Shown here piece by piece: positions 52,272-52,980 of a DNA stretch of 64,000 nucleotides. The stretch's first letter is position 1; every line of letters begins with the position of its first letter. The notes under the pieces are model-generated. The model was not told where the DNA came from and made no database searches. It saw only the letters and a list, made by a program, of their open reading frames with translations. Source of the stretch: Escherichia coli (GTDB taxonomy: Bacteria > Pseudomonadota > Gammaproteobacteria > Enterobacterales > Enterobacteriaceae). Made by a program: the position numbers and the translations under genes. The stretch is taken from NCBI RefSeq assembly GCF_048403405.1, contig NZ_CP183129.1. One strand, written 5' to 3'.

Positions 52272-52950
52272 ATGCGCCTATAAGGCTCTCTTACCAGCCG
52301 CGCCCTAACAGGCGCACACGATCTGACATTTGCATCCAACTTCGTTACTTACGGCCCGTAAACGAGCTGCCCGGATAGGGAATCGATAACTGCTCTCCCA
52401 TTTTATCCTCTTCAAGCTGGTGCTTTATGTAATCCTGTATCTTCGCCGTGTTCTTACCCACTGTATCGACGTAGTACCCTCTGCACCAGAACTCCCTGTT
52501 CCTGTATTTGAATTTCAAATCACCAAACTGCTCGTAAAGCATCAGACTGCTTTTCCCTTTCAGATATCCCATAAACCCGGATACGCTCATTTTAGGCGGG
52601 ATCTCCACAAGCATATGGATATGATCTGCACAGCATTCAGCTTCCAGAATCCGTACGCTTTTCCACTCACACAGCTTTCTCAAAATACTGCCTATTGCTC
52701 TACGCTTCTCTCTGTAGAACACCTGTCTTCGGTATTTTGGCGCAAAAACTATGTGATATTTACAGTTCCATCGGGTGTGCGCTAAGCTCTTTTCGTTCCC
52801 CATTGGGACCCCCTTTTGATTTCTTGTTTGACACTTGCAGTTGCCAGACCGCAAGGTGTTTTAACAAATCAAAAGGGGTTTTAATAACTGGCTCAAAGCT
52901 GAAAGCTTTCCGGAACCCCCAGCCTAGCTGGGGGTTTTCTGTGCACAAAA
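52272..52950 (-). mobile_element. IS200 insertion between lpxM and pykA terminators (boundaries approximate)
   Basis: Contains Y1 transposase gene plus long hairpin 52809-52878 next to the tnpA start and a second hairpin 52916-52934. Confidence 0.75.
52345..52803 (-). CDS. tnpA: IS200/IS605-family Y1 transposase TnpA
   Basis: 152 aa from MGNEK; HIH motif (CADHIHML) and catalytic Tyr region. Confidence 0.9.
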   Translation of the reverse strand: MGNEKSLAHTRWNCKYHIVFAPKYRRQVFYREKRRAIGSILRKLCEWKSVRILEAECCADHIHMLVEIPPKMSVSGFMGYLKGKSSLMLYEQFGDLKFKYRNREFWCRGYYVDTVGKNTAKIQDYIKHQLEEDKMGEQLSIPYPGSSFTGRK

Positions 52951-52952
52951 AA

Positions 52953-52980
52953 AGCCTCTCGCGAGGAGAGGCTTCCGCCT
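52953..52980 (-). terminator. pykA-side intrinsic terminator
   Basis: Minus-strand hairpin gcctctc/gagaggc followed by U-run. Confidence 0.55.

Follow-up and report, generated by a model that had tools for sequence, protein, structure and literature searches.

A complete IS200C copy at the end of the pykA terminator in a small Escherichia coli clade, and a tentative target rule for the element

Introduction

In one Escherichia coli genome the convergent genes lpxM and pykA are separated by an insertion that encodes a Y1 transposase, and this raises the question of where the inserted element begins and ends, what kind of sequence it entered, and what it might do to the genes on either side. 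The locus lies in a 64,000-nucleotide stretch of contig NZ_CP183129.1, hereafter the window, of which an original prediction had assigned 52272-52980 to an IS200 copy inserted precisely between an lpxM terminator and a pykA terminator, with two hairpins near the transposase start as the ends of the element. The analysis presented here indicates with high confidence that positions 52236-52946 are one complete copy of IS200C (IS200/IS605 family, IS200 group), inserted exactly where the T-tract of the pykA terminator ends and vertically inherited in a small clade. The finding itself is an ordinary copy of an already known element, whose tnpA gene is annotated in RefSeq at the identical locus. The only part that is possibly new is a target rule drawn from many such insertions, which bears on the abundance of IS200 together with its harmlessness, and on how Y1 transposases of the IS200 group choose their sites.

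Results and discussion

Boundaries of the element and the host terminator

Alignment of the window against the uninterrupted site of E. coli strain CS6L, which reads ...CCCATCAAAT|AAAAAAAGCCTCTCGCGAGGAGAGGCTTCC..., delimits an insert of 711 bp (Table 1). Subtracting exactly 711 bp from the occupied site yields the empty one, and there is thus no target duplication. The dinucleotide AA occurs at both junctions, making 52238-52948 an equally possible insert; owing to this 2-nt ambiguity, sequence alone does not tell exactly where cleavage took place. The interval originally proposed is displaced by about 35 bp, with the result that it omits the right-end hairpin of the element and takes in the terminator of pykA.

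Table 1. Coordinates of features at the lpxM-pykA locus, in window positions
Feature	Position	Strand	Evidence or remark
lpxM stop codon TAA	52235..52237	+	insertion point between T (52235) and AA
Complete IS200C element	52236..52946	-	top (tnpA-sense) strand is the window minus strand
Right end	52236..52268	-	terminal AATAAATAT at 52236-52244, i.e. ...ATATTTATT^ on the top strand
Right-end hairpin	52245-52263	-	8-bp GC stem, then A5/T5 run 52264-52268
tnpA, 152-aa Y1/HUH transposase	52345..52803	-	ORF and Pfam match
Predicted art200 region	about 52795..52884	+	positions inferred by applying the description in PMC4513863 to the sequence
Stem-loop near tnpA start	52810..52878	-	-32.1 kcal/mol, z = -5.7
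Rfam RF01405 STnc490, full-length match	52813..52936	-	146.4 bits (gathering score 56), E = 2.8e-31
Left-end hairpin	52914..52936	-	AACCCCCAGC-TAG-GCTGGGGGTT; 10-bp perfect stem, 3-nt loop, -18.7 kcal/mol
Left-end terminus	52937..52946	-	5'-GTGCACAGAA on the top strand; junction with host DNA, same terminus at 116 distinct sites
Host pykA intrinsic terminator, insertion target	52947..52976	-	present in the empty site
REP-type palindrome, pykA 3'UTR	53042..53076	.	between pykA stop codon (53080) and terminator; inverted repeat; host DNA, in the empty site

Empty sites read ...ATCAAAT|AAAAAAAGCCTCTCGCGAGGAGAGGC, with a single terminator abutting the lpxM stop codon; the host therefore has one terminator, that of pykA, between the two convergent genes. 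It consists of a 9-bp stem (52952-52960 / 52966-52974) followed by T7 (52953-52947, minus strand) that ends exactly at the left end of the IS, and it folds at -20.5 kcal/mol with U7. A terminator scan of 52100-53150 missed it, apparently as a G-T extension of the stem consumed the T-tract, and the assignment rests on the fold. Read from the lpxM side, this terminator has an A7 run, from which the lpxM stop codon takes its final AA in empty sites, and in that direction the hairpin is followed by TTCCGCC with no T-tract. Two further host structures, both retained in empty sites, lie upstream in pykA orientation, namely a 24-nt imperfect inverted repeat at 52988-53038 and the REP-type palindrome of the pykA 3'UTR, the latter giving a partial match to naRNA4 below the gathering score.

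The top-strand sequence across the junction is GAGAGGC-TTTTTTT^GTGCACAGAAAACCCCCAGC..., and the element therefore entered directly after the T-tract of the pykA terminator. The terminal AA of the IS restores the TAA of lpxM, leaving the lpxM ORF, the pykA ORF and the pykA terminator all unchanged. The same stop-codon geometry recurs in another strain, at an insertion between yebQ and htpX.

The structure previously taken for an lpxM terminator is accordingly the right end of the IS. Its hairpin, terminator-like on both strands (folding energies -15.5 and -15.9 kcal/mol), is missing from the CS6L empty site and travels with every other copy of IS200C, the right end being conserved in 15 copies with unrelated flanks and across 43 distinct right-end flanks; it is therefore the right-end subterminal hairpin of the element. 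The layout with a host lpxM terminator at 52243-52270 and an IS at 52272-52980 between two host terminators might seem attractive, given that a plus-strand hairpin plus TTTTT directly follows the lpxM stop and scores as terminator-like and that the resulting 709-bp interval falls within the IS200 size range, but it is practically untenable, as the empty site shows no trace of the 52245-52263 hairpin, this hairpin together with the terminal AATAAATAT marks the right end of IS200C copies near unrelated genes, and 52947-52980 is present in empty sites and hence is host DNA.

The transposase and the left-end RNA structures

The 152-aa Y1 transposase that had been predicted here is borne out by a match of its product to the Pfam profile Y1_Tnp (PF01797; E=3.8e-38, 130.7 bits against a cutoff of 23) over profile positions 2-121 of 121. 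Homologues with solved structures include 2ec2, 2f4f, 2a6m, 2vhg and 2xm3, with the TnpA of IS608 (2a6m) recovered at E=4e-19. The HUH motif corresponds to H61-I-H63, which aligns with the DHIHLF motif of 2ec2, and the conserved tyrosine is Y125 (IQDYIKHQ), aligned with the conserved KKYIEEQ tyrosine. The protein is identical at 151 of its 152 positions to the commonest TnpA of IS200C, and the element does belong to the predicted IS200 family; the sole difference of the protein is a private P147S change in the TnpA tail. PGAP names the gene at the identical locus 'IS200/IS605-like element IS200C family transposase'.

tnpA is the only long ORF in the element with a family match, and tnpB is absent. 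The element is devoid of terminal inverted repeats (GTGCAC... versus ...ATTTATT) and has subterminal hairpins at both ends. Both of its ends are shared with other IS200C copies in unrelated flanks, with AATAAATAT-CCTCCGGCATAGCCGGAGG on one side and ...GGGGGTTTTCTGTGCAC on the other, and the terminal ...GTGCAC of the left end is conserved across unrelated contexts. The window holds just this one copy of IS200.

The two hairpins singled out in the original prediction both exist, and both belong to the left end, so that they do not mark the two ends of the element: by comparison with the published description of IS200 (PMC4513863) one is a terminator and the other a stem-loop sequestering the Shine-Dalgarno sequence. 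The shorter, noted at 52916-52934, is the core of the left-end hairpin, which is presumed to be the subterminal hairpin bound by TnpA; an A-run just 5' of its foot is a candidate guide sequence. The longer, noted at 52809-52878, is a genuine stem-loop next to the tnpA start but not a perfect one, having a perfect lower stem of 13 bp and an interrupted upper part; it pairs the G-run of the Shine-Dalgarno sequence. Counted from 52946 the two structures occupy nucleotides 11-33 and 69-137. These positions closely parallel those reported for Salmonella IS200, namely a bidirectional Rho-independent terminator at nucleotides 12-34 of the left end and a Shine-Dalgarno-sequestering stem-loop at nucleotides 69-138 (PMC4513863).

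The same region carries the Rfam STnc490 match, which lies on the tnpA-sense strand and spans both the left-end hairpin and the 5'UTR stem-loop. STnc490/art200 has been defined as antisense to tnpA (PMC4513863), and the tnpA-sense strand of the Rfam model seems at odds with this; both RNAs come from the same DNA. A -35 element TTTACA (52759-52764) and a -10 element TAAGCT (52783-52788) form a candidate art200 promoter. A promoter scan of 52100-53150 returned no sigma-70-like site, and therefore no outward promoter is proposed. The earlier suggestion that the insertion might add structured RNA or antisense transcription at the pykA 3' end thus holds for the DNA encoding structured RNA (the STnc490 match of 146 bits), whereas antisense transcription into the 3' end of pykA appears unlikely, because art200 is expected to end inside the element and both the left-end hairpin and the pykA terminator intervene.

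Distribution and descent of the insertion

The flanks of the insertion were matched in 5,425 of 5,426 complete E. coli genomes, and the site is occupied in only nine, the flanks being joined in the others. The K-12 arrangement, with lpxM and pykA directly adjacent, is therefore that of nearly all E. coli, and the insertion is lineage-specific, as had been proposed; comparison with IS-free genomes shows that the element is far from being present at this site in all E. coli lineages. The occupied genomes are TUM14771, GN02461, 4621, MS 69-1, TUM1226, OX030728 and three ST2747 assemblies. These nine are also the nine nearest genomes in 12 kb of host flank, six at 100.0% identity and the three ST2747 assemblies at 99.5%, while the next nearest genome, at 99.3%, has an empty site. 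All nine share the IS copy at 100% identity, with copies elsewhere reaching at most 99.9% over 711 bp. Together these observations point to a single insertion that was passed down within a small clade, for which the copy serves as a marker.

An ancestral occupied state followed by precise excision elsewhere was considered and is rejected given that occupancy is confined to the nine nearest of 5,426 genomes. With 16 kb of flank as the query, of which 4 kb are prophage, the occupied genomes wrongly appeared to have closer relatives among the empty ones, an artefact that the host-only 12-kb query resolved.

TUM14771 is the closest complete genome of the occupied clade, and window positions 39967-64000 differ from it by one mismatch in 24 kb. 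Synteny with it breaks at 39967, which in TUM14771 falls inside yecE, and positions 1-39966 of the window constitute a lambdoid prophage, with tail protein J, a side tail fibre and Lom among its products and 88-94% identity to the best phage matches. This prophage includes three tRNA genes at 13230-13476 and RNA matches to isrK (7265-7341), C4 antisense RNA (7366-7453), STnc100 (13556-13755) and IS009 RNA (38050-38248). At the other extremity, at about 63286-64000 on the minus strand and running off the end of the window, is a gene adjoining yebE that is annotated in TUM14771 as a member of the RNA-guided endonuclease InsQ/TnpB family; the neighborhood thereby has another representative of the IS200/IS605 family, be it a relic or an element. 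In TUM14771 torY is annotated as a pseudogene with an internal stop (29446-30546 of the compared TUM14771 stretch), outside the host part of the window.

IS200C is common across E. coli: 2,063 genomes contain full-length copies, the median being one and the highest number 35, and the genomes of the occupied clade hold 8-20 matching places; up to 17 copies of IS200C had been noted earlier (PMC7314097). These numbers bear on whether the copy at lpxM-pykA might be effectively fixed, an immobile small-RNA locus that supplies the 5'tnpA and art200 RNAs and is no longer a working transposon, a reading that partly overlaps with the one preferred here. IS200 has been described as dormant and essentially immobile, with its RNAs regulating host genes in Salmonella, and several features of this copy are in keeping with such a role: its RNA module is a full-length Rfam match, the copy is invariant even in the ST2747 genomes with their 0.5% flank difference, and its TnpA carries P147S. 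Against this, the ORF, the HUH motif, the tyrosine and both ends are intact, matching places number 8-20 in the clade and up to 35 in other E. coli, and the element is known from 116 distinct sites, among them one within a prophage gene. The intact parts, high copy numbers and many sites indicate that the family has been active on recent timescales, and an immobile RNA locus thus seems a somewhat improbable description of this copy. The preferred reading remains that of a complete IS200C copy inherited by descent from one insertion.

A target pattern shared by 116 insertion sites

Insertion directly after a terminator T-tract is not peculiar to lpxM-pykA. Distinct left-end flanks, 116 in number, were pooled from E. 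coli genomes, one scan of species representatives and one metagenome scan. All 116 start with AA, i.e. the top strand has TT before the cleavage point, within a TTTNTT consensus: T occurs at 59% at position -7, 84% at -6, 98% at -5, 91% at -4, 67% at -3 (with A at 18%) and 100% at both -2 and -1, and positions -8 to -14 are G/C-rich. No conservation was detected in the flank on the right-end side (43 distinct right-end flanks). In 101 of the 116 flanks a perfect hairpin with a stem of 6 bp or more begins no more than 10 nt away, ten further flanks have a hairpin with one mismatch, and long-loop hairpins were recognized by eye in the last five. Of TTTNTT sites in general, 9.1% of those outside ORFs (n=1,429) and 2.4% of those inside ORFs (n=4,391) pass the same hairpin test; this explicit perfect-stem test was used in place of a control based on a folding-energy threshold, which proved too permissive (35% of random 45-mers pass). 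In all copies examined the left end abuts an A-run and a GC hairpin, which is typically an intrinsic terminator.

In NZ_CP053247.1 (93507-94617) one IS200C copy lies inside the coding sequence of a prophage head-tail joining (gpW-like) protein, after about codon 16. Removal of exactly 711 bp restores an intact ORF of 68 aa, and the restored sequence occurs uninterrupted in many genomes at 100% identity over 400 nt. The target at this site is a GC hairpin followed by TTGATT, with no terminator.

The right end of the element itself has the same shape, GCCGGAGG-ATATTTATT^, that is, a hairpin followed by TTTATT^. A-runs lie just 5' of the feet of both the left-end and the right-end hairpins; in IS608 the guide sequences lie just 5' of the hairpin feet (PMC6006769). 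The simplest reading of the target pattern is mimicry of the right end, and it can be suggested, tentatively, that IS200C-type elements are not guided by a short sequence only but home to a structure resembling their own right end (GC hairpin plus TTTNTT^), which in practice would be the distal edge of Rho-independent terminators. If true, IS200 would be a terminator-homing DNA transposon, and its harmlessness, transcriptional silence and long-term persistence would have a mechanistic account. In the accessible literature no explicit statement of terminator-homing by IS200 was found; older papers on IS200 and IS1541 may describe a target preference, and the Yersinia IS1541 sits between pheL and pheA.

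The rival of right-end mimicry is that no targeting is involved, and that insertion takes place at any TTTNTT, with only the harmless copies just past terminators persisting. Such survivorship would fit the low information content of the sequence motif alone and the neutrality, for both neighbors, of sites just past a terminator, as at lpxM-pykA; moreover, a preprint reads terminators upstream of ISs as promoting the persistence of these elements. It sits less easily with the frequency of such hairpins, which is 87-96% at IS sites but only 9.1% at TTTNTT sites outside ORFs, with the copy in the gpW-like coding sequence, which still follows a GC hairpin plus TTGATT, and with the element's own right end, which has the same hairpin plus TTTATT^. 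Differential survival is thus a possible but doubtful account of the pattern, and right-end mimicry is retained as its simplest reading.

Replication-strand bias

The replicating strand that carries the element was examined at 74 distinct loci with 6 kb of flank or more, of which 73 have non-zero skew. The top strand of the IS is on the G-rich strand, which is the lagging-strand template, at 52 of these 73 sites, while the other 21 have it on the C-rich strand (p=4e-4), a bias that is confounded with gene orientation, the IS being co-oriented with the gene whose terminator precedes it. The bias agrees with the direction expected from IS608 and ISDra2 and lends indirect support to single-stranded transposition. 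The copy in the window is in the minority orientation: the GC skew of the pykA/tnpA sense strand is -0.04 over 50 kb of host DNA and negative in all five 10-kb bins, which places the top strand on the C-rich strand, the leading-strand template, an orientation disfavoured for IS608 and ISDra2.

Predicted mechanism and consequences for the neighboring genes

In the IS200/IS605 family the Y1 transposase binds the subterminal hairpins of the top strand, cuts this strand out in circular form and inserts it on the 3' side of a short target adjoining the left end (PMC6006769, PMC2806898). By analogy with these relatives, the 152-aa Y1/HUH transposase would move IS200C as single-stranded DNA by such 'peel and paste', probably via a single-stranded circular intermediate, and would join the top strand to the 3' side of a T-rich target flanking the left end. 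At the present locus this target was the end of the pykA terminator T-tract, where it abuts the lpxM stop codon in uninterrupted genomes.

Before the insertion lpxM transcripts would have met the shared hairpin without a T-tract in their own direction; they would now reach the right-end hairpin of the IS followed by T5, which has the appearance of a good intrinsic terminator. Judging from these structures, termination of lpxM may have changed, and its transcript in this clade probably ends in IS-derived sequence; the hairpin after lpxM should in any case not be annotated as a host terminator. Read-through from pykA toward tnpA would face two barriers, first the pykA terminator and then the left-end hairpin.

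Translation of tnpA would be held down by the Shine-Dalgarno-sequestering stem-loop together with the art200 antisense RNA, a dual block that has been shown experimentally for Salmonella IS200 in E. coli (PMC4513863). From its position, art200 would stop some 60 nt within the left end, where the stem-loop is followed by UUUU. The element is probably silent, its output being no more than the small RNAs 5'tnpA and art200. For this window it is thus of little importance, being a well-insulated IS copy that marks a clade.

Comparison with known systems

The closest counterpart is IS200C of E. coli, so named by ISfinder and in the PGAP annotation, to which the present copy has 99.9-100% DNA identity over 711 bp, with the same ends and the near-identical TnpA described above; RefSeq annotates the identical insertion in nine genomes. 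What sets the copy apart is one private nucleotide change, that responsible for P147S, and in a chromosomal position confined to one clade. With the IS200 of Salmonella enterica (LT2/SL1344) it shares, by the published positions and the Rfam model, a single tnpA, the left-end terminator, the Shine-Dalgarno stem-loop and the STnc490/art200 region; the length stated for the Salmonella element is 707 bp, against 711 bp here (PMC4513863). The regulatory targets of Salmonella IS200 are invF and SPI-1.

More distant are IS608 of Helicobacter pylori and ISDra2 of Deinococcus, which possess a homologous Y1/HUH transposase and subterminal hairpins without terminal inverted repeats. They also agree with IS200C in the lack of target duplication, in insertion 3' of a short target adjacent to the left end, and in the preference of the top strand for the G-rich strand. 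IS200C differs from them in lacking tnpB and in having left-end and right-end hairpins that are unlike each other in sequence. The target of IS608 is a specific tetranucleotide, TTAC. That of IS200C is the T-rich TTTNTT accompanied by a hairpin, whereas that of ISDra2 is the plain pentanucleotide TTGAT (PMC2806898).

The remaining comparison is with group IIC introns, and it is an analogy of niche only. These share no component with IS200C, being a ribozyme with a reverse transcriptase in contrast to an HUH DNA transposon, but their place is directly behind an inverted repeat and the Ts that follow it, which is the niche found here for IS200C and the one that a terminator-homing IS200 would share with them.
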